Assembly: GCA_041742355.1 (NCBI GenBank)
Contig: JBGSIV010000253.1
Span: 1-29,898 of the forward strand
Origin: Candidatus Zixiibacteriota bacterium
GTDB lineage: Bacteria > Zixibacteria > MSB-5A5 > GN15 > FEB-12
Direction: 5' to 3'
Length of the DNA: 29,898 bases
In this document: one piece after another, positions 5,609 through 19,074 of the stretch
Layout: each line of letters starts with the position of its first letter
Position numbering within the stretch: position 1 is the first letter of the stretch
Notes under the pieces: generated by a model
Told to the model about the DNA's origin: nothing
Database searches by the model: none
The model's input: only the letters and a program-made list of their open reading frames with translations
Made by a program: the position numbers and the translations under genes

Positions 5609-8110
5609 TCAGTCGGTCTGCCACTGCTCGACCAGCGTGCGGTAGCGGTCAGCCAAAGCGGCAGTTGCCGTCTTCGAGCGGGTTTCGGCCATGATATTGA
5701 ATGAAGCCGTCTCGCGGTCCGGCATGAGCAACACCCAGCCGCCACTTTCCCGAATTCGAACACCGTCGACAAGCTGACGCTCTTTGTCCTGCGAGTTAAC
5801 GATCAGGTGGCGCATGACTGTTCCCTTTTTTGACCATGGGCACGGGACCGACAGAGACTCGCGTTCGAGGTCTGAGAATTTGCGGCGCAGTTCGCTGAAC
5901 CGGCTCCTGGTTTTGGCCATCATTTCCAGGATTTTGCAGGCGGCGTACATGGCGTCGGCCCCGCTCTGGAAGCCGGGGAAAATGAACCCGCCGCGGGTGC
6001 CGCCGACAAAATCGACTTCGCCGCGGCGCATGACGTCCATCATGGCGAGGTGGTCGTTGGCGACGCGGACAACTTCCACGCCGTATTCGCGGGCGACATC
6101 CTCAACCCCCATTGAGGCAGCCACCGGGACGGCGATGCGCTTGACGCCGTCAAGGCGGAGGTACAACTCGAGCACCACCAGCAGGAGCTGCTGGGTGTCG
6201 ACCGGCTGGCCGCGGTTGTCCACAACCGTCAGTTTCTCGGCAGCCGGGTTCAGCAGGAAGCCGATGTCGGCTTTGAGCGAGGTGACGATCGCCGACATCT
6301 GCACCATCGCCTGAGCCATCTCCTCGGGCGATGTGGAGAATTTGCGCGGGTTGAGATTGGCGTTTAATTCGACCGCGGAAATGCCCAGCTCCGAGAAGAG
6401 AGTCGGGAAAATCTGGCTGGAGGAACCGTTGGAGTGGTCGATGACGATCTTGAAGCCGGCTTTGCGGATGAGATCGATATCGAGTGACCGGACGAAATCC
6501 CGGCGATAGTTTTCCAGCACATGCTGCGGCGTATCGAGATGACCGATATCGTCGAGGGTGGCCCGTTCGAAGTCTTCGCCAAAGTACATCCGTTCGATCT
6601 TCTTGAGCTTGCTCGTCGGCATGTCCACCCCGGTGCCATCGAAAAAGATGCAATCGATCTGGCGGAAATCCAGCGGCGAGTGGCGCACGTAGATGCCGGC
6701 GGCGTAGTTGCCGCGGGTCAGTCCGTAGCGAACGACCGGGATCGGCAGGGTCTCCAGATCGGCGACATTGACGCCGGAGGCAAGGAAACCGGAGATCAGG
6801 CCGCGCTTGATGAGGCGCGAGCCATCGGACGCATCGCGGCTGGTGACAACCGACGAACCGCGGCCGAGCAGAGCGCCGAAAGCGGCGCCGACCTTGACAG
6901 CCATCTCGGGCGTGATTTCGGTCAGGGCCAGACCGGTGATCTTCGAGTTGGTGAACAGCTCGCGGTTCCAACGATCCCCCCAGACGATGGAAGACGAGAC
7001 GATAGCCCCGGGGTCGACCATCTTGCCCGGCCATATCTTGCAGTTGGCCTTGACCGTGGCGCCGTCGCCGATCACGGTGTCGTCGGAAACGATCACGTCG
7101 GCCATGAGCTGGACATTGCGCCCGAGGCGGGCGGAGTTGCAGATCACGCTTTCGGCGACAGTGCTCTCGGCGCCGATGATGCAGTCCGACCAGACGACCG
7201 TGTCACTGAGCTCGGCTCCCGCCCCGATGCGGGTCCGATCGCCGATGCAGCAATCGTGAAGGCGGGCGCCGGCCTCGATTTGCACGCCATCGCCGAGCAC
7301 AACGCGACCGGTGAACTTGACCCCCTCGGCGATGAGGACATGCTGTCCAAGCCGCAACTCCCCGTGGTCAATCGGCCTCTCCTGCATCTTGAGATCCAGC
7401 TCGAGGACTCTGTCGAAGTAGTCCGCATGAGCGCGGCGGTACTCGCCGACATTCCCGACATCTTTCCAGTAGCCCTGCATAATCTTCCCATAGAGCCCCA
7501 TCTGGCGCGACAGCATCAGCGGAAAGAGATTCTGCGAGAAATCGAAATTGGTCCGCGGCGGAATCATCTCGATGGCCGATGGTTCGAGAATGTAAATGCC
7601 GGTATTGATTGTGTCGGAGAAGGCTTCACCCCACGAGGGTTTTTCGAGGAAGCGCACAATCTGGCCGTCATCGTCAGTAATGACGATTCCGTAGGCGAGC
7701 GGATTTTCCATGCGGGTGAGCAGAATGGTCGCGTCGGCCTTCTTCGCGGCATGCCAGGAGATAGCCTCGGACAAATCAAAATCGGAGAGGACGTCGCCCG
7801 AGATCACGAGGATCGGTTCGGTGGCGTTGGAAAGGGCATAGCGAACTGCGCCGGCAGTGCCGTAGTCATCGTCCGGCTGCATGTAGTCCATGGTGATGCC
7901 GAAGCCGGAGCCGTCCTTAAAGTGGTCGCGGATCTTCTCCGGCTGGAAATACAGCAGCGACGTGACGTCGGTGATACCGTGCTTGACCAGCAGGGAGACC
8001 ACGTGCTCCATCATGGGGAGGTTGCAGATGGGCACCATGGGCTTGGGAATATTGATCGTGAGCGGGCGCAACCTGGTGCCGAATCCGCCTGCCATTACAA
8101 TCGCCTTCAT
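5609..8110 (-). CDS. Sugar-1-phosphate nucleotidyltransferase (mannose-1-P guanylyltransferase-like) + hexapeptide beta-helix + phosphohexomutase-like domain
   Basis: MKAIVMAGGFGTRLRPLT..PKPMVP, GTAGAV, SGDV, FLEKP, INTGIY, YWKDVG. LbH repeats follow, then a PGM/PMM-like fold (ITPEMAVKVGAAFG...VDGVRI...GWVLLMPD). Confidence 0.9.
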   Translation of the reverse strand: MKAIVMAGGFGTRLRPLTINIPKPMVPICNLPMMEHVVSLLVKHGITDVTSLLYFQPEKIRDHFKDGSGFGITMDYMQPDDDYGTAGAVRYALSNATEPILVISGDVLSDFDLSEAISWHAAKKADATILLTRMENPLAYGIVITDDDGQIVRFLEKPSWGEAFSDTINTGIYILEPSAIEMIPPRTNFDFSQNLFPLMLSRQMGLYGKIMQGYWKDVGNVGEYRRAHADYFDRVLELDLKMQERPIDHGELRLGQHVLIAEGVKFTGRVVLGDGVQIEAGARLHDCCIGDRTRIGAGAELSDTVVWSDCIIGAESTVAESVICNSARLGRNVQLMADVIVSDDTVIGDGATVKANCKIWPGKMVDPGAIVSSSIVWGDRWNRELFTNSKITGLALTEITPEMAVKVGAAFGALLGRGSSVVTSRDASDGSRLIKRGLISGFLASGVNVADLETLPIPVVRYGLTRGNYAAGIYVRHSPLDFRQIDCIFFDGTGVDMPTSKLKKIERMYFGEDFERATLDDIGHLDTPQHVLENYRRDFVRSLDIDLIRKAGFKIVIDHSNGSSSQIFPTLFSELGISAVELNANLNPRKFSTSPEEMAQAMVQMSAIVTSLKADIGFLLNPAAEKLTVVDNRGQPVDTQQLLLVVLELYLRLDGVKRIAVPVAASMGVEDVAREYGVEVVRVANDHLAMMDVMRRGEVDFVGGTRGGFIFPGFQSGADAMYAACKILEMMAKTRSRFSELRRKFSDLERESLSVPCPWSKKGTVMRHLIVNSQDKERQLVDGVRIRESGGWVLLMPDRETASFNIMAETRSKTATAALADRYRTLVEQWQTD

Positions 8111-8129
8111 TCCTTAACTCCAACTCTAC

Positions 8130-8810
8130 CTATCGGTTATTGGCTTCGGCGAGGACGCCGAGCTCTTCCAGCGTGCGGGCAACATCGAAGAAATCAGCAA
8201 AGCTTGTGCACGCAATATTGTGCATGTGGCAGTAGCGTTCAAGGTCTTTTTTGGCAAAAAGGACATCCGCCTCGGGAGCCGCGCAAGCGTCCGAGAGGCC
8301 ATCCCCGACAAAGACAATCCGGGTTGGCCCTTCCTGCCTGTCGCGGTACTCACGGATGCGCTCCCCCTTGCAACTGCCGCACCGGGTACAATGGCTGTTC
8401 GTATGCGGGAATTCGATGTGGATGTAGGAGCCATTGAAATATCCGTGGTTGGTAATCAGCGGCAGGTGCGCCAGCCGAAAGCGCTCCAGCAGATGATTGA
8501 TATACAAATCAAGCCCATCGGACACGATGAACAGCTCGAGGTGCTGCGCACGGCAGCGCTCCGCGAACGCCGGAAAACCCGGGTCGAGGTCGAAATCCCT
8601 GAGGAATTCGAGGAGGTCGGCTTCGGTGCAGGGAGCCATGGCCGCCTCGCGCACGAGAATCTCGCGGCTGGACATGCGGCCGGCCTTCCAGTCAGGCAGG
8701 AGCTCGCGCGTACGTCCGCCAGAGAAGTGCTTGAACAGGTTGTAACCAACATCGCGGCGGGCAATGGTACCGTCGAAGTCGCAGAAGACAGCGGTGTGGA
8801 GCTTGGTCAT
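8130..8810 (-). CDS. HAD-IB phosphatase, MtnX-like
   Basis: Motif I DFDGT, motif II VSDG, CxxCGSCK, motif IV GDGLSD..A..AD.LFAK. Confidence 0.85.
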   Translation of the reverse strand: MTKLHTAVFCDFDGTIARRDVGYNLFKHFSGGRTRELLPDWKAGRMSSREILVREAAMAPCTEADLLEFLRDFDLDPGFPAFAERCRAQHLELFIVSDGLDLYINHLLERFRLAHLPLITNHGYFNGSYIHIEFPHTNSHCTRCGSCKGERIREYRDRQEGPTRIVFVGDGLSDACAAPEADVLFAKKDLERYCHMHNIACTSFADFFDVARTLEELGVLAEANNR

Positions 8811-12083: not shown

Positions 12084-12117
12084 AAAAAAACAACCGGCGG
12101 TGATTGTCACCGCCGGT
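12084..12117 (-). terminator. Intrinsic terminator after ino1
   Basis: Perfect 11-bp inverted repeat ACCGGCGGTGA (12093-12103) / TCACCGCCGGT (12107-12117), followed on the minus strand by TGTTTTTTT. Confidence 0.8.
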
Positions 12118-12146: not shown

Positions 12147-13364
12147 CTACTTTTTCTTGCGCACGACCCGCTTGGAAGACGCAGTGCCAGTGGTTTTCCG
12201 TCCTGCCGCCTTGGTCCCGGTCGCCGGGCGGGCGGACTTACGTCCCTTCGCGGCAGCGCGTACCGTCTGGCGACCGACGCTCTTGAACTTCCAGCCGTAC
12301 TCGGTAATAAACTGCTCGACCATCTGCCGGGCCACATCATCCGGATACTGCACGGGAGGGGACTTCTTGAAGTAGGCCGACGGTGCGATGAGCGCGCCTG
12401 AGAGGCCGTTGTCCAGCGCCAGCTTGCAGCAGCGGAGGGCGTCGATCACGACTCCGGCCGAATTCGGGCTGTCCCAGACCTCCAGTTTCATTTCGGCGTT
12501 GAGCGGGACATTGCCGAAGGTCGTGCCTTCCATGCGAATGTACGCCCACTTGCGATCGTCCAGCCACTCCACGTAATCGGACGGGCCGACGTGCACATTC
12601 TTCGGGGCCAGCTCGTAGTCGAGCATGCTGGTAACGGCGCAGGTCTTGGAGATCTTCTTCGACTGCAGGCGGGAACGCTCAAGCATGTTGAGGAAGTCGG
12701 TGTTGCCGCCGACATTGAGCTGGCTGGTGCGTTCGAGCTTAACGCCGCGATCCATGAACAGGCGGGTCATGACGCGGTGAACGATAGTTGCGCCAACCTG
12801 TGACTTGATGTCATCGCCGATGACCGGCAGCCCCTTCTCCTTGAACCGCTTCTGCCAGTACTGCTCCTTGGCGATGAAGACCGGAATGCAGTTCACGAAA
12901 CCGCAACCGGCGTCGAGTACCTGCTCGACATACCACTTCGTGGCTTCCTCCGAACCCACCGGCAGGTAGTTGATGACGACGTCGGTCTTCGTGTCCTTGA
13001 GGAGCTTCACGATGTCAACCGTGTCACCCGGGGCCTTCTCGATAATCTGCGAGAGATAGAAACCGAGACCGTCATGCGTCATGCCGCGCTGGACGGTGAT
13101 GCCGGCCTTCGGAACCTTGCAGAAGGTGTACGTGTTGTTCGGCTTGGTGTAGATCGCTTCCGACAAATCCTTGCCGACTTTGTTCTTGTCGATGTCGATG
13201 GCAGCGGAGAACTCGATGTCGCTGATGTGGTAGCCGCCGAGGTTGACGTGCATGAGGCCGGGGATCTTGTCGGTCTCCTTGGCCTTCTTGTAGAACTCGA
13301 CGCCCTGCACCAGCGAGGAGGCGCAGTTACCGACGCCGATAATCGCAACTCTGATTTTGCCCAT
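12147..13364 (-). CDS. ino1: Myo-inositol-1-phosphate synthase (short actinobacterial/archaeal type) with basic C-terminal tail
   Basis: [71 protein letters not shown]. Confidence 0.95.
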
Positions 13365-13414
13365 ACATAATTCCCTTTATTTCACAGGACCTACGGTTTG
13401 TTCGCTCTGTCGAA

Positions 13415-13444
13415 AATATAGAAGCAGCGACCGGCGGGTGTCAA
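13415..13444 (-). promoter_or_regulatory. Putative sigma70 promoter for ino1
   Basis: Minus strand TTGACA (13444-13439) - N18 - TATATT (13420-13415). Confidence 0.5.
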
Positions 13445-13450
13445 ATGCAA

Positions 13451-13479
13451 TTGACTCCGACGATGATCTTATATATCAT
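13451..13479 (+). promoter_or_regulatory. Putative sigma70 promoter for tetR
   Basis: TTGACT (13451-13456) - N17 - TATCAT (13474-13479). Confidence 0.6.
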
Positions 13480-13492
13480 TAGTATATGATCT

Positions 13493-13508
13493 ATGACTAT
13501 ATAGTCAT
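13493..13508. promoter_or_regulatory. Perfect 16-bp palindrome, likely TetR operator
   Basis: ATGACTATATAGTCAT lies between the tetR promoter and its GAGGAG RBS. Confidence 0.7.
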
Positions 13509-13523
13509 CCTCGAGGAGCGGCT

Positions 13524-14201
13524 GTGACAGACCGTCCCGCACGCCGCCGCGACGAACTCGACGAAAACGTCGTCCTCGCACTGGTGCGCAACGAGGTAGC
13601 TACCGATACCTTCCGGCGGCTGCCGTCGGCGAAGAAGGCGCGGGTGTACCAGGTGGCGCTCCAGTTGTTCGGCGAGTACGGCTACGACGGCCTCGCGATC
13701 GACCAGTTGTGCCGGGAGGCGGGAATCAGCAAAGGGTCATTCTTCCAGTATTTTCCCAGCAAGAGCCACCTGCTGGAGTTCTGCGTGGTCCTGTTCGACC
13801 ACTACCTGGCCGCGTGGACGGTCGAGATTCGCGCCAATGACACCGCGGTCCTCGCGCGGGAGCGGCTCCTGCACCTCTACCGTTCGATTGCGCTCAATTC
13901 CCGGTTGTTTCCGGCCGAGGAAAAGTTCTACCTGTTCGTCACGCGGGCGCTGAACCACTCGGCGGTGGCGCTGGAGGGAGTGGATATCGAGCGGCACTTC
14001 GAGGGGTACGTCACGGAGATCATCAGTCGCGGGGAGCAGACGGGCGAGATCCGGGGGGATTTCGACCCCCGGCTGACCGGGCATCTGGTGGCGCTGATCA
14101 TCGAGGCCCTGGTGGAACGAACATTCGAGGGAAAGGGACTCTCACGACACGAAGCAGAACGCTACCTGATTTCCTTCTTGTTCGACGGAATCAAGGCCTA
14201 G
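13524..14201 (+). CDS. TetR/AcrR family transcriptional regulator
   Basis: TFRRLPSAKKARVYQVALQLFGEYGYDGLAIDQLCREAGISKGSFFQYFPSK HTH. GTG start with GAGGAG RBS. Confidence 0.92.
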   Translation: MTDRPARRRDELDENVVLALVRNEVATDTFRRLPSAKKARVYQVALQLFGEYGYDGLAIDQLCREAGISKGSFFQYFPSKSHLLEFCVVLFDHYLAAWTVEIRANDTAVLARERLLHLYRSIALNSRLFPAEEKFYLFVTRALNHSAVALEGVDIERHFEGYVTEIISRGEQTGEIRGDFDPRLTGHLVALIIEALVERTFEGKGLSRHEAERYLISFLFDGIKA

Positions 14202-14542
14202 TAGAGTCGCCCGCCGGTCTCCGCTTCATCGGCCGGGCGGACGATTGCGATGCCGTCGCCGTCAGCCCTCGGCACTCCTAACACGAGAACCTCCGACATG
14301 AACCCGGCGATATTGCGCGGAGGGAAGTTCACGACTGCAAGGCACTGCTTGTTGAGCAGTTCCTCGGGGGGGTAATTGTTCTTGAACTGTGCGGATGACT
14401 GCTTGATGCCGATCTCGGGGCCGAAGTCGATTCTGAGCTTGTAAGAGGGATTGCGGGCGCGGTCGAAGTCGGTGACCTCGATAATGCGCCCGACTCGGAT
14501 ATCGACCTTGGCGAAATCGTCGTAGGAAATGGAATCGGCCAC
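14198..14542 (-). CDS. csaA: CsaA/Trbp111-type tRNA-binding, export-related chaperone
   Basis: ISYDDFAKVDIRVGRI, YKLRIDFGPEIGIKQSSAQ, AVVNFPPRNIAGFMSEVLVLG. GTG at 14542 is preceded by GAGAGG. Confidence 0.88.
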   Translation of the reverse strand: MADSISYDDFAKVDIRVGRIIEVTDFDRARNPSYKLRIDFGPEIGIKQSSAQFKNNYPPEELLNKQCLAVVNFPPRNIAGFMSEVLVLGVPRADGDGIAIVRPADEAETGGRLY

Positions 14543-14599
14543 GGAGACCTCTCGTCCGCAGAAAGTCGTCAGGCCGCAAACGGCCCGATCCACTGGATA

Positions 14600-15535
14600 C
14601 TACACGTTTACCGCCACCCGGACCTTGTAGCCGGTCATCGCCAGCAGCTCCGCCTGACGGGTGCGAATCATCTGCTCGGTCATGACAAAATCCGGGCCGG
14701 TGTTCTCGATCATGATCGACGAGGTACACGACGCATAGCAGCCGGCTTGGCGGAGGTCCTTCGTGCGAAGATACTCAAACGTGAACCCGGCCATGTAAGT
14801 ATCCCCCGCGCCGGTCGAGTCAAGCAGGCTGATGTTCGTGTACGGGGGGATGTCGATGAAATTCTTGCCATCGTAGATCACCGAGCCAAGCTCGGCCAGG
14901 GTCACGATTACGATCTTCGGCCCGGCGGCGTGGATCATTCGAGCGGCCTTGTACGGATCCTCGCGGCAGTCGACCCCGGTGAGAACTTTGGCCTCGAGCT
15001 CGTTCGGCTTGACGACATCGAAGAGCGCCAGCGTCTCCCAGATACCCGGCACCTGTTCATGGTAGATACGCCCGGTTGCGTCGGCGCCGCGAATCAATCC
15101 CTGCGGGTCGCAGAAGAAGAAACCGTCGAAGTGCTCGCGGACCTTGCGGATACCTCCGAAAGTGACTTCGCCGAGGATCGGGCCGACGAGCACCGCCTTC
15201 GCATCGGCGAACCAGGTCGGGTTGATCGGGAATATCTCGGCGGCGCGGCCGAGCAGGTCGAGCGTCCGATTGCCGAAGTCATCGTAGTAGTCAAGGGCAA
15301 ATCCGCCGGTCTCGTTCGAGGGGATAATCACATGGTCGATGCCATTGCGGGCCAGGTCGGTGATGAACTGGTCTTTGAAATCGGGCCCGACCGCCCCGAC
15401 CAGGCGCACCTTCTCCCCCATCTTGGAGAGCGCCAGCGCGGCGTTGGTCGAACAGCCGGAGAGCACGCGGCCGGCCGGCTTCACTTTCTTCGTCGTAATG
15501 AGATCGTAGACGGGGTTGCCCAAGGCGGTAATCAC
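14600..15535 (-). CDS. PfkB/ribokinase-family kinase, candidate myo-inositol kinase
   Basis: PNELEA and anion-hole motif DSTGAGD. DPQGLIR resembles the D-x-Q-[GA]-x-x-R segment of characterised ribokinase-family myo-inositol kinases. Inositol gene context. Confidence 0.85.
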   Translation of the reverse strand: MITALGNPVYDLITTKKVKPAGRVLSGCSTNAALALSKMGEKVRLVGAVGPDFKDQFITDLARNGIDHVIIPSNETGGFALDYYDDFGNRTLDLLGRAAEIFPINPTWFADAKAVLVGPILGEVTFGGIRKVREHFDGFFFCDPQGLIRGADATGRIYHEQVPGIWETLALFDVVKPNELEAKVLTGVDCREDPYKAARMIHAAGPKIVIVTLAELGSVIYDGKNFIDIPPYTNISLLDSTGAGDTYMAGFTFEYLRTKDLRQAGCYASCTSSIMIENTGPDFVMTEQMIRTRQAELLAMTGYKVRVAVNV

Positions 15536-15570
15536 GGGGAGTCCTTTCCGACAGGCGGGTCGCGGCGCGG

Positions 15571-16254
15571 TTACACCTCGCGCCGATCACCGAGCACTTT
15601 GTACGTATAGATGAGCCGCTGAATGGCCGTTATGAACGAAGTGACGCCAACCACGATCAGGGCCAGTTCAAGCCAGCCGCTGCGCGGAAATGCACCGACC
15701 GGGAAGAAATATTCAAGCAGCGAACCGGCGATAATAAGCATGAATTTTTCCAGCCGCCCCATGATGCCGACCGCACAGTTCTCGATCTTGCCCATCGATT
15801 CCGCAGCGGCGCGGGTATACGAGGCGATAATCATGCCGAACAGGGCGAACAACCCCCAGCCCGGATGGACGCGGCCCGAAAGGGTGATGCCGGCGAGCAC
15901 GAAAAACTCGCCGTAGCGATCGGAAACATGATCGAGAATGCCGCCGAAAACCGTGCCCATATTGCCGGCGCGGGCGGTCGAACCATCAAGCATGTCCGTA
16001 AACGAGGTCACGATCATCCAGAAGACTCCCCAGAGCCACTGGCCATCCCAGAAGAAAATGCCGGAGATGACCGCGCAGATGAGGCTCACCGCCGTGATGT
16101 AATTGGGGCGGAATCCCATGCGGACACAGATCTTCCCGAGGAAGAGCGATGACTCTTCGTAGAATTGCCGCTTACGCTGATTGATCCCTGGCTCCGCCAT
16201 GTAATCCCTTAATCGCTCGTGAAATCTGGCGCTAATATACAGATTTTTGGACAC
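15571..16254 (-). CDS. CDP-alcohol phosphatidyltransferase, PIP/AIP-synthase-like
   Basis: Signature DMLDGSTARAGNMGTVFGGILDHVSD, plus PNYIT, SYTRAAAES and GIMGRLEK. Confidence 0.9.
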   Translation of the reverse strand: MSKNLYISARFHERLRDYMAEPGINQRKRQFYEESSLFLGKICVRMGFRPNYITAVSLICAVISGIFFWDGQWLWGVFWMIVTSFTDMLDGSTARAGNMGTVFGGILDHVSDRYGEFFVLAGITLSGRVHPGWGLFALFGMIIASYTRAAAESMGKIENCAVGIMGRLEKFMLIIAGSLLEYFFPVGAFPRSGWLELALIVVGVTSFITAIQRLIYTYKVLGDRREV

Positions 16255-16509
16255 AGGTCAACGATGGTGATGACGGATTTTGCGGACAGGCTGTGGGTCC
16301 GTGGCGACCGCTGTTTGATGATAGTTGGTTGCCACACAAGTGGATATGGCGACGATTTCGTCGCAGGGCCACCAGCCGTTGAAATCATCGCGGAGAACCC
16401 CCGAAAATGTTTGGCCGAACGCGAAGAAGCCTGTTAGCTTTAAGCCGGAGTCGAAAACGCTCTTGCAGCGGAGTATCGAAAGGTCAGACCGGTGTGTGAA
16501 CGCGGTTCT

Positions 16510-19074
16510 GTGAATTGGATTGTTCTTTCGGGTGTGTTGCTTCTGCTGGTGAGCCTGTGGTGTGAGTCGGCCGAAGCCCGCATGAAGTTACGCGAGAGCG
16601 ACGGGCGCGGGCAGAACTACCCAATGGCCACCGCGCGCCCGGCCCACATGCTCGCCGCCCACCGCATCGGCCGTATTGAGCTGGCCGTTACCAACAACGG
16701 AACCTTCGGCGTGGAGTACACCCCCGCGTCGCGCAGCGATTACTTCACCGGCGATCCCGTCTCTCTGTCCTGTCAGTACCCGAAGGGTTCGGGCGTGACC
16801 TACCTGTTCGGCGCCGCTTTCTGGATCGGCGCGGTGGCCGGCCGCGATACTCTCGTTTCGGTCGGCGCGGACGGCTGGCAGACGGTGAACGAGATGTTTC
16901 CCGATGACGAACCTTTCGGACAGATGCAGTACCGTTCGATCAAGGACCCCAATGGTCCGTACGCCGATGAAGCGGTGTCGGAGGAGGACTACATCTCGGT
17001 GTACACCGACACGTTCCCCGGGCTGGTCGACAACGATTTCTTCGGCCGCCTCCACAAACCACTGAATATCGAAGTCCGCGAGGCATCGTACGCCTGGTCC
17101 TACGCCTATGCCGAGGACTTCGTCCTCTTCGACTACCGGATCAGGAATATCGGCAGCCAGCCGCTCCACAAGGTCTACATGGGAATATACGTCGACGACG
17201 AGATCTGCTACGACTGCATGGGAGGCACCAGCGGATACACCGACGACCACAGCGGGTTTCTGCGCACGTATGCCAACCAGTATGGGGCGTGCCAGTTCGA
17301 GGATACCGTGTTCATCGCCTGGCAGGCCGACAACGACGGCGACGCCGATGTGGTGTACTCCGACGGGCGAACCCATCCGACACCCGATGCGGTCGCTACA
17401 CGCATTGTGCGGACCCCCGCCGAGACTCTCGATGTGAGCTTCAACTGGTGGATCGGCAACGGCGACCCGCAACTCGATTTCGGACCGAGAGAACTGCCGT
17501 TCAAGGGGCAATGGGCCGAACCGTTTCGCGATTTCGGCACCGGCGGCCTGGGAACGCCGGAGGGGGATGTGAATAAGTACTATATCCTGCGCAACCGCGA
17601 GTTTGATTACGATCAGATCTTCACCGCCGACATCTCCCCCAATGATACGCTCTGGTTGTATCCGAACCAGGATCTCGCCGCCGATTTTGCCGATGGCTAC
17701 GATACCCGTTACCTGCTGTCGTTCGGGCCGTTTGAGATCGTGCCGGGACAGTCGCTGCCCATCTCCTTCGCCTACCTGGCCGGGCAGAATATCCACCGGG
17801 ATCCCGCCAACGGCGCCAATCTCCCCGATCGTCCGGATCTGTACTACCGCAACCTCGACTTTACCGACCTGTCGCTCAATGCCATGTGGGCCTCGTGGGT
17901 GTACGATAATCCGGGGGTGGATTCCGACGGCGACGGGTACTTCGGAAAGCACCACCTCTGCTCCACCCTGACCCAGCAGGGAGCGCTCAAGGTGGATACG
18001 TTCTGGTACGAGGGGGACGGCATTCCGGATTTCCGCGGCGCCGCTCCTCCCCCGCCCCCCGACTTCCGCCTGGAGTCGCCGTCGGAAGGAACGATCGTGA
18101 TCCGCTTCAACGGCTTGCGCAGCGAAACCACCCGGGACAATTTCTCCCGGTTGCAGGACTTCGAAGGGTACCGTGTCTACCTCGGGCGCGACAACAGGGA
18201 GGAAAGCTTCAGTCTCATCGCGTCGTACGATCGGGAGAACTTCAACAAGTACGTGTGGAACGAGGCGACCGACGACTGGGAGCTGAACGATCCCCCCTTC
18301 ACGCTACCGGAGCTTCGCTGCCTCTACGCCGATTCCTGCGGCGATAATTCCTTTGACCCGCTCTTCTACACACGCTCCCGGCGATTCCAGCATCCCGATT
18401 TCGCCGACTCGCAGTTCTTCTTCGTGCGCCAGGACTTCAATGCCGTCGGGACAGGAGCCGGTGCTATCGAAAAGACCTACCCCGACCAGCCATTCCCTTC
18501 GCACCTCGACCCCGATTCGGCCCGCCCCGATGAGCTGACCCCGCTGGGACATTTGAAGTACTTCGAGTACCAATACACTGCGGAAAACCTGCTGCCGACC
18601 GTGCCGTACTGGGTCAATGTGACCGCCTTCGATTTCGGTTCGCCGGAGTCGGGCCTGGCCTCGCTGGAGACATCGGTGACCGATGGTGCGAAGTCGATCT
18701 ATACAATTCTCGGAAATCCAGCCCAGGGGGATCCCGGCAAGATCACCGTGTACCCGAACCCGTACCGGGCCGATGCCGGGTACAGGGATCTCGGTTTCGA
18801 GGGACGACAGGATGTTGTCCGCCCCGATAACCGCGTGCGCGCGGTGCATTTCGCCAATCTGCCGCCGAAATGTACGATCCGGATATTCACACTCGACGGC
18901 GATCTGGTGCGGGAGATTGTGCACGACGGAGTGCAAGGATCGAGTTCTGCGTCGCACGATGAATGGGATCTGATTACGCGGAACACCCAGCGGGTCGCCA
19001 CCGGGCTGTACTACTGGACGGTTGAAGACGCCGCCGGAAACGTGCAGACAGGCAGGCTGGCAATCATCATGTGA
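16510..19074 (+). CDS. Large secreted protein with FN3-like region and C-terminal sorting-type Ig domain
   Basis: Signal peptide MNWIVLSGVLLLLVSLWCESAEA from GTG 16510 (alternative start 16492). DxDxDG-type Ca-binding motifs, DFEGYRVY. C-terminus VYPNPY...FANLPPKCTIRIFTLDGDLVREI...WDL...ATGLYYW. Confidence 0.8.
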   Translation: MNWIVLSGVLLLLVSLWCESAEARMKLRESDGRGQNYPMATARPAHMLAAHRIGRIELAVTNNGTFGVEYTPASRSDYFTGDPVSLSCQYPKGSGVTYLFGAAFWIGAVAGRDTLVSVGADGWQTVNEMFPDDEPFGQMQYRSIKDPNGPYADEAVSEEDYISVYTDTFPGLVDNDFFGRLHKPLNIEVREASYAWSYAYAEDFVLFDYRIRNIGSQPLHKVYMGIYVDDEICYDCMGGTSGYTDDHSGFLRTYANQYGACQFEDTVFIAWQADNDGDADVVYSDGRTHPTPDAVATRIVRTPAETLDVSFNWWIGNGDPQLDFGPRELPFKGQWAEPFRDFGTGGLGTPEGDVNKYYILRNREFDYDQIFTADISPNDTLWLYPNQDLAADFADGYDTRYLLSFGPFEIVPGQSLPISFAYLAGQNIHRDPANGANLPDRPDLYYRNLDFTDLSLNAMWASWVYDNPGVDSDGDGYFGKHHLCSTLTQQGALKVDTFWYEGDGIPDFRGAAPPPPPDFRLESPSEGTIVIRFNGLRSETTRDNFSRLQDFEGYRVYLGRDNREESFSLIASYDRENFNKYVWNEATDDWELNDPPFTLPELRCLYADSCGDNSFDPLFYTRSRRFQHPDFADSQFFFVRQDFNAVGTGAGAIEKTYPDQPFPSHLDPDSARPDELTPLGHLKYFEYQYTAENLLPTVPYWVNVTAFDFGSPESGLASLETSVTDGAKSIYTILGNPAQGDPGKITVYPNPYRADAGYRDLGFEGRQDVVRPDNRVRAVHFANLPPKCTIRIFTLDGDLVREIVHDGVQGSSSASHDEWDLITRNTQRVATGLYYWTVEDAAGNVQTGRLAIIM

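Follow-up and report, generated by a model that had tools for sequence, protein, structure and literature searches.

What is a predicted inositol kinase doing beside a lipid head-group transferase in a bacterium of the uncultured phylum Zixibacteria? We asked this of a 29,898-nucleotide stretch of DNA (the window: contig C253, GenBank JBGSIV010000253.1, of one 93.8% complete genome of a Candidatus Zixiibacteriota bacterium), in which the open reading frames of ino1, a PfkB-family kinase and a CDP-alcohol phosphotransferase all lie on the minus strand inside 4.1 kb, the last two separated by 35 bp. An earlier note made from the letters had described this arrangement, and the motifs it quoted are all present in the translations (PSNETGGFALDYYDDFGNRTLDLLGRA, LVGPILGEV and DPQGLIR in the kinase; SYTRAAAES and GIMGRLE in the transferase). 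Judging from sequence comparison, the pair probably serves phosphatidylinositol (PI) synthesis, with the kinase recycling free inositol. Ino1 would make inositol-3-phosphate (Ins(3)P), the kinase would phosphorylate free myo-inositol with ATP to the same compound, and the transferase would combine Ins(3)P from either source with CDP-diacylglycerol (CDP-DAG) to give phosphatidylinositol phosphate (PIP), which PgpA or a PAP2_3-family membrane protein could then dephosphorylate to PI; the PgpA-like BT_1525 is a precedent for this last step (PMC9246714). A kinase would be needed because prokaryotic synthases of PIP and of archaetidylinositol phosphate (AIP) take only phosphorylated inositol, and any free inositol that lipid turnover or the inositol monophosphatase of this genome releases would be lost without it.

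The pairing is widespread in the phylum. In a sample of 151 genomes, among which kin are not independent, ino1 was found in 147, while kinase orthologues (E 3e-57 or better; next match 1e-19) and transferases of the variant type described below (E 1e-58 or better; next match 5e-26) occurred in the same 117. The variant transferase is found upstream of the kinase and on its strand, at no more than 300 bp in 103 of these 117 genomes, 1 kb in 110 and 3.5 kb in 114; one further transferase is 14 kb from the kinase and two are on other contigs. This linkage is far beyond chance, and the conservation of the neighbourhood, proposed earlier as a check, is borne out. Of 22 loci with the kinase that were read together with long flanks, 9 have all three genes contiguous (transferase-kinase-ino1), and the close named homologues of both proteins are mostly from Zixibacteria. 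Among the remaining 34 genomes, 29 carry a distant transferase (27-37% identity) and no kinase, and two have no transferase at all at E 1e-8. In three genomes, 93-97% complete, ino1, kinase and transferase are all unmatched, reflecting joint loss or an assembly gap.

The distant transferases directly precede ino1 in 15 of 15 kinase-less loci read, and their 14 distinct sequences all have canonical PIP-synthase motifs, in which Ser follows the third Asp and position 155 (Mt numbering, used throughout) is Arg. Both transferase versions share the block rsmI - PAP2_3 - (lgt) - transferase - (kinase) - ino1 - tmk - S41, where brackets mark genes not always present, and the variant occupies the canonical PIP synthase's place in it. 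As a candidate functional partner, lgt was seen beside the transferase-kinase pair in 6 of 22 loci, but in this genome it is on another contig. In five kinase-less genomes, the DxQGxxR motif that marks the kinase was not found in 7 of the 8 best PfkB loci, the eighth giving no reading and four weaker loci being unread. A host tree built from ino1, tmk and S41 implies at least 2 changes between the cassette and canonical states; being unrooted, it gives these changes no direction inside the phylum.

How well does the kinase suit the predicted reaction? TK2285, a myo-inositol 3-kinase, contacts inositol through D12, G26, Q136, R140 and D219, and its pocket residues L77, L87 and V112 correspond to N78, S89 and L116 in the 1-kinase TM0415 (PMC5931981). 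In a profile alignment that included TK2285, all five contacts are kept (as D11, G27, Q145, R149 and D245), and L81, L92 and I120 align with the three pocket positions, the Ile for Val being a conservative change. Every one of 34 close relatives has the same five contacts and both Leu residues. According to the PDB title of 7E4L, N78L/S89L converts the TM0415 1-kinase to a 3-kinase, and this engineered enzyme is the best match of both broad kinase-family profiles. The product of TK2285 is Ins(3)P, the same as that of Ino1 (PMC6900528), and one archaeal member of the kinase subfamily bears the automatic label '1D-myo-inositol 3-kinase'. In a tree whose rows are all uncharacterised, TK2285 and plant MIK not being among them, the kinase falls among DxQGxxR (inositol-kinase-like) proteins and is separated from nucleoside-kinase-like rows (SH-aLRT 100); together with the retained acceptor residues, this upholds the earlier view of it as TK2285-like. 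A sister group of the DxQGxxR kinases has Asn/Gln instead of Leu/Leu with an ATP-type motif, and the position that it phosphorylates may differ.

Overall similarity says less than the acceptor site. The best PDB sequence match is the nucleoside kinase 3KD6 (E 3e-19), with TM0415 variants at ranks 4-5 and TK2285 at rank 21, and the N-terminal half alone finds 3KD6 first and 7E4L fifth without singling out the inositol kinases. By fold, the structure model (pLDDT 91.7) matches TM0415 best (Z 34.3, rmsd 2.3, 275 aligned; TM0415 chains also occupy Foldseek ranks 1-7), followed by ribokinases (Z 32.5 and 32.3), TK2285 (31.9) and 3KD6 (30.6), so that TK2285 ties with ribokinases lying no more than 2 Z units below the top. 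The sequence ranking and the nearness of the ribokinases would suit a common nucleoside or sugar kinase that lies beside the transferase only incidentally. We consider this very improbable, since 3KD6-like proteins carry DTMN at the DPQG position and form a separate clade (100), and the adjacency to the transferase outlasts both inter-phylum transfer and a swap of gene order. In a context control of 80 PfkB loci, moreover, a CDP-alcohol transferase was nearby in 5 of the 11 with DxQGxxR and in none of the 69 others.

Of the five residues in the pyrophosphate (PPi) signature (K171, F221, R229, R232 and M266), only the Lys is present in the kinase, as K176. ATP is therefore the likely phosphate donor, and PPi dependence was rejected on this count and on the ATP-type donor motif DSTGAGD. 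A predicted complex of a transferase dimer with the kinase (score 0.01, mark 0.32) gave no evidence either way.

The transferase carries the full class I CDP-alcohol phosphotransferase signature (DxxDGxxAR...GxxxDxxxD), plus P(D/N)xx(T/S). When alignments are read against the residue roles of the PIP-synthase pocket (PMC4634129, PMC6506517), it keeps equivalents of R94, S132, Y133, R152 and R195, with Arg replacing K135. Its best hidden Markov model is AIP synthase, then PIP synthase, with PgsA at 35 bits, and the structure model (pLDDT 89.9) matches PIP synthases first (Z 20.9-19.7), ahead of PgsA (13.5) and PSS (12.2). Several findings speak against a standard PIP synthase. R155 is replaced by Lys, R137 by Ala and A90 by His, as well as P153 by Leu, and the Arg at 155 (Rs R153) is called 'absolutely conserved' in PIP synthases (PMC4634129, PMC6506517). 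The protein also scores under all curated cut-offs: 133/180 bits for NF040950 (AIP synthase), 91/170 for NF045883 (PIP synthase) and 67/350 for NF052561. In the fold ranking, DIPP synthase (DIPPS)/Af2299 follows close behind the PIP synthases (Z 19.3-19.4). Lys at the R155 position is found in 30 of 30 aligned rows and in other Thermoproteota AIP-synthase-like proteins; His or Arg at position 90 is nearly confined to kinase-linked transferases. An archaeal member of the variant clade reaches 178.9/180 bits. The transferase thus likely works like a PIP synthase, but because Arg155 is missing and the curated cut-offs are not reached, we do not file it as a PIP/AIP-synthase member. The earlier assignment to these synthases stands as a likeness, and the contrast drawn with PGP synthases holds (PIP/AIP synthases at Z 20-21 versus PgsA at 13.5); it belongs to a variant lineage common to Thermoproteota archaea and is not a PIP synthase of the mycobacterial type.

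Could the transferase use glycerol phosphate instead? A further point against our assignment comes from a review, in which the glycerol-phosphate transferases of archaea are noted to fall into one cluster with AIP synthases (PMC9385802), and the same doubt has been raised for haloarchaea (PMC8305020). With R155 not conserved, this would fit a synthase of the phosphatidylglycerol- or archaetidylglycerol-phosphate (PGP/AGP) type, the kinase then belonging to a separate inositol route. The idea is quite improbable, however, as the genome has a true PgsA adjoining PgpA, the variant takes the canonical PIP synthase's position beside ino1 in relatives, and Ino1, present in 147 of 151 genomes, would be left without a found consumer. 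The genome's three other class I transferases, PgsA (beside PgpA), PssA (beside Psd) and a Cls/PgsA-like protein, are otherwise assigned, which makes the variant the sole candidate consumer of the Ino1 product.

A soluble solute of the di-myo-inositol phosphate type is extremely improbable as the product. DIPP synthase comes close by fold (Z 19.4), a DxQG kinase lies between ino1 and a fused IPCT/DIPPS gene in one Thermoplasmata locus, the single kinase match among 121 Thermoplasmatota is placed between ino1 and IPCT/DIPPS, and some relatives carry IPCT/DIPPS; yet the DIPPS rows form their own clade (100) in the transferase tree, with a different motif, and inositol-phosphate cytidylyltransferase (IPCT), noted earlier as absent from the window, had no match anywhere in this 93.8% complete genome, although the same query found the control enzyme at E 1e-49. 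Extra transferase matches occur in 8 of the 117 paired genomes; of three read, two are fused IPCT/DIPPS and one is divergent. Some Zixibacteria hold a separate fused IPCT/DIPP synthase.

GGGP synthase (PcrB family) gave 0 matches in this genome, control genomes being positive, while DGGGPS, CarS and G1PDH were not searched. An archaeal ether backbone was rejected on this result, and the lipid donor would therefore be CDP-DAG; the genome also has a CdsA-like motif, an inositol monophosphatase and a GDPD-like gene. Morii 2014 is reported to show that PIP and AIP synthases can use each other's lipid donor. Mycothiol was likewise rejected as a use of the Ino1 product: no MshA scored over the cut-off in 21 of 21 genomes, and the best MshA-like match (290/462 bits) belongs to a heptose cluster, where it forms a fusion with GmhA. 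This fusion of an MshA-like GT4 domain with GmhA (C306:5312-7807 of this genome) lies beside SDR and GmhB genes and was not found at a similar score in 20 relatives searched. Speaking against uptake, no convincing sugar porter was found (best partial match E 4e-12) and none was linked; sodium-solute and ABC transporters were not searched. The core of the earlier salvage proposal survives; salvage from outside is unsupported, as no transporter is linked, and internal recycling is at least as likely.

Outside the phylum, the kinase subfamily with an adjacent variant transferase occurred in 2 of 201 Anaerolineae (with reversed gene order; a third genome carries only the kinase), 2 of 151 Myxococcota and 3 of 201 Thermoproteota (in a fourth the kinase lies apart). 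Five of these genomes were tested for ino1, and all have it elsewhere. Both Myxococcota keep the pair alongside a separate ino1-linked transferase. In the genome labelled Ca. Nezhaarchaeales, the variant is the only class I transferase and lies in a proS-rps26e neighbourhood common to other Thermoproteota. Members of the wider kinase family in Thermoproteota have DxQGxxR in 30 of 30 top loci and lie within 5.5 kb of an AIP-synthase-like gene in 32 of 73 genomes (the best 84 of 129 genomes with a match, minus 11 without a listed transferase row). Only 2 of 251 Actinomycetota gave kinase matches, neither with the DxQGxxR motif. The scan of the genome collection for kinases comprised the best 600 matches, mostly other PfkB kinases, and is a sample, not a census.

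One observation sits poorly with simple recycling: 29 relatives with ino1 and a canonical-type transferase do without the kinase, which leaves the invariable variant-kinase pairing unexplained. The pair might instead make another inositol lipid, the kinase giving a different isomer or using another cyclitol or derivative and the transferase pocket (His90, Ala137, Lys155) being tuned accordingly. The strict coupling (117 of 117), the near-restriction of His/Arg90 to kinase-linked transferases and the two Myxococcota with an additional transferase are in keeping with this, as is a precedent that counts against our assignment: a Leu/Leu/Ser homolog (No. 49) of Nagata 2018 gave three inositol phosphates, and another true acceptor was suggested for it (PMC5931981). 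We nevertheless judge such a product decidedly unlikely, given that Lys155 is also found in ordinary AIP-synthase-like proteins of Thermoproteota whose genes have no kinase next to them, that the variant is the only class I transferase in Ca. Nezhaarchaeales, and that the kinase pocket matches that of the 3-kinase TK2285.

Where does the pair come from? We built quick transferase trees of 102 and 54 rows, like the kinase tree without characterised enzymes. In the larger, the bacterial variants (99) and the archaeal variants (93) form sister groups; both fall within a Thermoproteota clade (97), which in turn belongs to a mostly archaeal clade (98) that excludes the canonical bacterial rows; the smaller supports the same groupings at 85-94. 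A single clade for all Zixibacteria transferases was rejected (p-AU 6e-5), the variant grouping with Thermoproteota rows rather than with the canonical-type synthase of its own phylum. In the kinase tree, the same archaeal genomes join the bacterial kinases (99), which form one group (96) with Anaerolineae and Myxococcota rows falling among Zixibacteria. It is thus well supported that the pair is shared across domains with Thermoproteota archaea, and co-occurrence and both trees show that the kinase and the variant transferase travel together as a cassette of two genes. An archaea-to-bacteria direction is favoured, though not proven, from the transferase tree and gene context only; weighing against it, a single clade for all bacterial transferase rows was not rejected by the AU test (p-AU 0.083).

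We also considered which lipids might lie downstream. A PAP2_3-family gene lies at C198:17066-17983 of this genome, between rsmI and lgt; in relatives it adjoins the inositol transferase in 14 of 37 loci, and in two actinobacterial loci it adjoins ino1 and a PIP synthase. Its product is a candidate PIP phosphatase or inositol-ceramide synthase. Against a PI-dihydroceramide synthase model, 2 of 5 such proteins scored weakly (E 1e-4 to 7e-4, 19-22/480 bits), this genome's protein not at all, and a PDB profile search returned LpxE only, again weakly. A gene whose best model is serine palmitoyltransferase (SPT; 545/640 bits), with Kbl/BioF models scoring lower, has a GNAT-like gene (375 aa) after it in 5 of 5 genomes, here at C303:4334-6584, and this partner was found in nearly all genomes of the phylum (149 of 151). 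In one relative, a gene of the NAD-dependent epimerase family runs divergently from the GNAT-like gene, and another relative has an ORF of the same size there. The ceramide synthase bCerS is GNAT-like, and the two genes suggest phylum-wide ceramide synthesis, with inositol ceramide as a possible end product. bCerS is termed an acyltransferase (PMC11087976), and one study reports SPT-like genes in 38 phyla, Zixibacteria not being named in its main text (PMC11334938). A bolder reading would derive the cassette from Thermoproteota, have it displace the native PIP synthase more than once and now act on bacterial CDP-DAG, and let the pairing reflect chemistry beyond recycling, either a phosphoinositide phosphorylated at another position or a cycle of inositol exchange, with inositol phosphoceramide supplied via the PAP2_3 protein and the SPT-like/acyltransferase pair; as a whole, this is rather unlikely.

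Each enzyme type is already known, and ino1 with a PIP-synthase-like gene is common: 22 of 50 assorted bacterial genomes gave a PIP-synthase-like match, at odds with the earlier statement that prokaryotic PI synthesis is known from few bacterial groups. TK2285 of Thermococcus kodakarensis (PDB 3W4S/4XF7; EC 2.7.1.64) resembles our kinase in ribokinase fold, five inositol contacts, Leu/Leu pocket and ATP-type donor motif. In contrast, ours is bacterial, shares only ~22% identity, has 311 rather than 273 aa and Ile for Val112, and is tied to a lipid transferase, a link that we did not find described for TK2285. TM0415 of Thermotoga maritima (5YSP), a PPi-dependent myo-inositol 1-kinase from a catabolic gene cluster (PMC5931981), is the top fold match and shares the D/Q/R acceptor residues and the Lys at K171, but our kinase lacks R229, R232, F221 and M266 and has Leu/Leu instead of Asn/Ser. 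With AIP synthase (NF040950) and actinobacterial PgsA1 (5D92, 6H59, 6WM5), the transferase shares its signature, a six-helix fold with a juxtamembrane helix and most of the inositol-phosphate pocket; it departs from them in R155K, R137A, A90H and P153L and in its sub-threshold scores. The Bacteroides thetaiotaomicron cluster BT_1522-1526 likewise combines Ino1 and a PIP synthase, and a PAP2_3 gene adjoining in many relatives and PgpA and SPT-like genes in the genome extend the likeness, but no inositol kinase is among the five cluster genes that the paper names (PMC9246714), and the Zixibacteria PAP2_3 protein barely matches the BT_1522-type PI-dihydroceramide synthase model.

As far as searched, three things are new: a probable ATP-dependent bacterial inositol 3-kinase within a lipid cassette, the association of its family with archaeal AIP synthase, and the exchange of two unrelated transferase lineages at the same site. 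We found no paper on the transferase-kinase pair or on Zixibacteria inositol lipids, most subscription papers lying outside the search, and the only bacterial inositol kinases that we found described are PPi-dependent (PMC5931981). The locus provides a candidate ATP-dependent myo-inositol 3-kinase from bacteria that is soluble, easy to express and linked with lipid synthesis, and the proximity to AIP-synthase-like genes in many Thermoproteota suggests a physiological job for the TK2285-like family. According to a 2015 paper, no inositol-kinase candidate was identifiable in mycobacteria or Tannerella (PMC4587543); the mycobacterial gap would remain, as the DxQGxxR family was not found in the 251 Actinomycetota searched. 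If the archaeal origin is true, the divide between archaeal and bacterial lipids was crossed by a head-group enzyme that then took the place of a native one. Inositol lipids, perhaps sphingolipids, are predicted for this uncultured sediment phylum, which bears on how sediment PI lipids are interpreted.

Features of the inositol-lipid locus (positions in the window)
Feature	Position	Strand	Remarks
CDP-alcohol phosphotransferase, PIP/archaetidylinositol-phosphate-synthase-like, variant pocket (LDHxxDR, SYTRAAAE, GRLEK)	15571..16200	-	209 aa
PfkB/ribokinase-family kinase (PF00294), predicted ATP-dependent myo-inositol 3-kinase	14600..15535	-	311 aa; D11, G27, Q145, R149, D245; L81, L92, I120; DSTGAGD
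ino1, myo-inositol-3-phosphate synthase, actinobacterial/archaeal type, Lys-rich C-terminal tail	12147..13364	-	PF01658
csaA-like tRNA-binding/chaperone gene, likely co-transcribed bystander	14198..14542	-	start inferred, GTG 14542
TetR-family regulator, divergent from ino1, separating ino1 from transferase-kinase pair	13524..14201	+	
Perfect 16-bp palindrome upstream of tetR, likely tetR operator	13493..13508	.	TGAC-N6-GTCA in 5/6 tetR loci, sixth with one mismatch
Sigma-70-like promoter site before transferase-kinase pair	16234..16261	-	consensus match only
Sigma-70-like promoter site before ino1	13415..13444	-	11/12 consensus match
Terminator-like hairpin 3' of ino1	12093..12117	-	

On the minus strand, the order is transferase, kinase, csaA, ino1, tmk and S41 peptidase, with the plus-strand tetR intervening before ino1; csaA adjoins the kinase in 5 of 41 clustered loci. 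The earlier note had extended the transferase to 16254. The gene stands, but its start is most likely ATG 16200 and not GTG 16254, because the product in the database has 209 aa and the promoter-like site at 16261-16234 overlaps the GTG. Promoter-like sites numbered 6 versus 1.4 expected. Since separate sites of this kind precede the transferase and ino1, and csaA and the divergent tetR intervene, the pair and ino1 are likely two transcription units in this genome; a single operon including ino1 was rejected on these grounds and on the terminator-like site of ino1. The palindrome lies downstream of tetR's own -10-like box, which makes autoregulation likely and control of ino1 possible. The ino1 product exceeds the PF01658 cut-off and matches M. 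tuberculosis Ino1 over its full length (E 1e-145); its Lys/Arg-rich C-terminal tail (12147-12300) extends past the part aligned to that enzyme.

Two neighbouring regions of the window deserve mention. At 5609-8810, an HAD-IB phosphatase and a fused GDP-mannose pyrophosphorylase/phosphomannomutase are kept downstream of the ino1 block in many relatives; a connection with mannosylated inositol lipids is conceivable. At 16492-19074, the window encodes an 860-aa secreted-looking protein without a Pfam match, with a C-terminus weakly resembling those of the type IX secretion system (T9SS) and with ~10 long paralogues in the genome.

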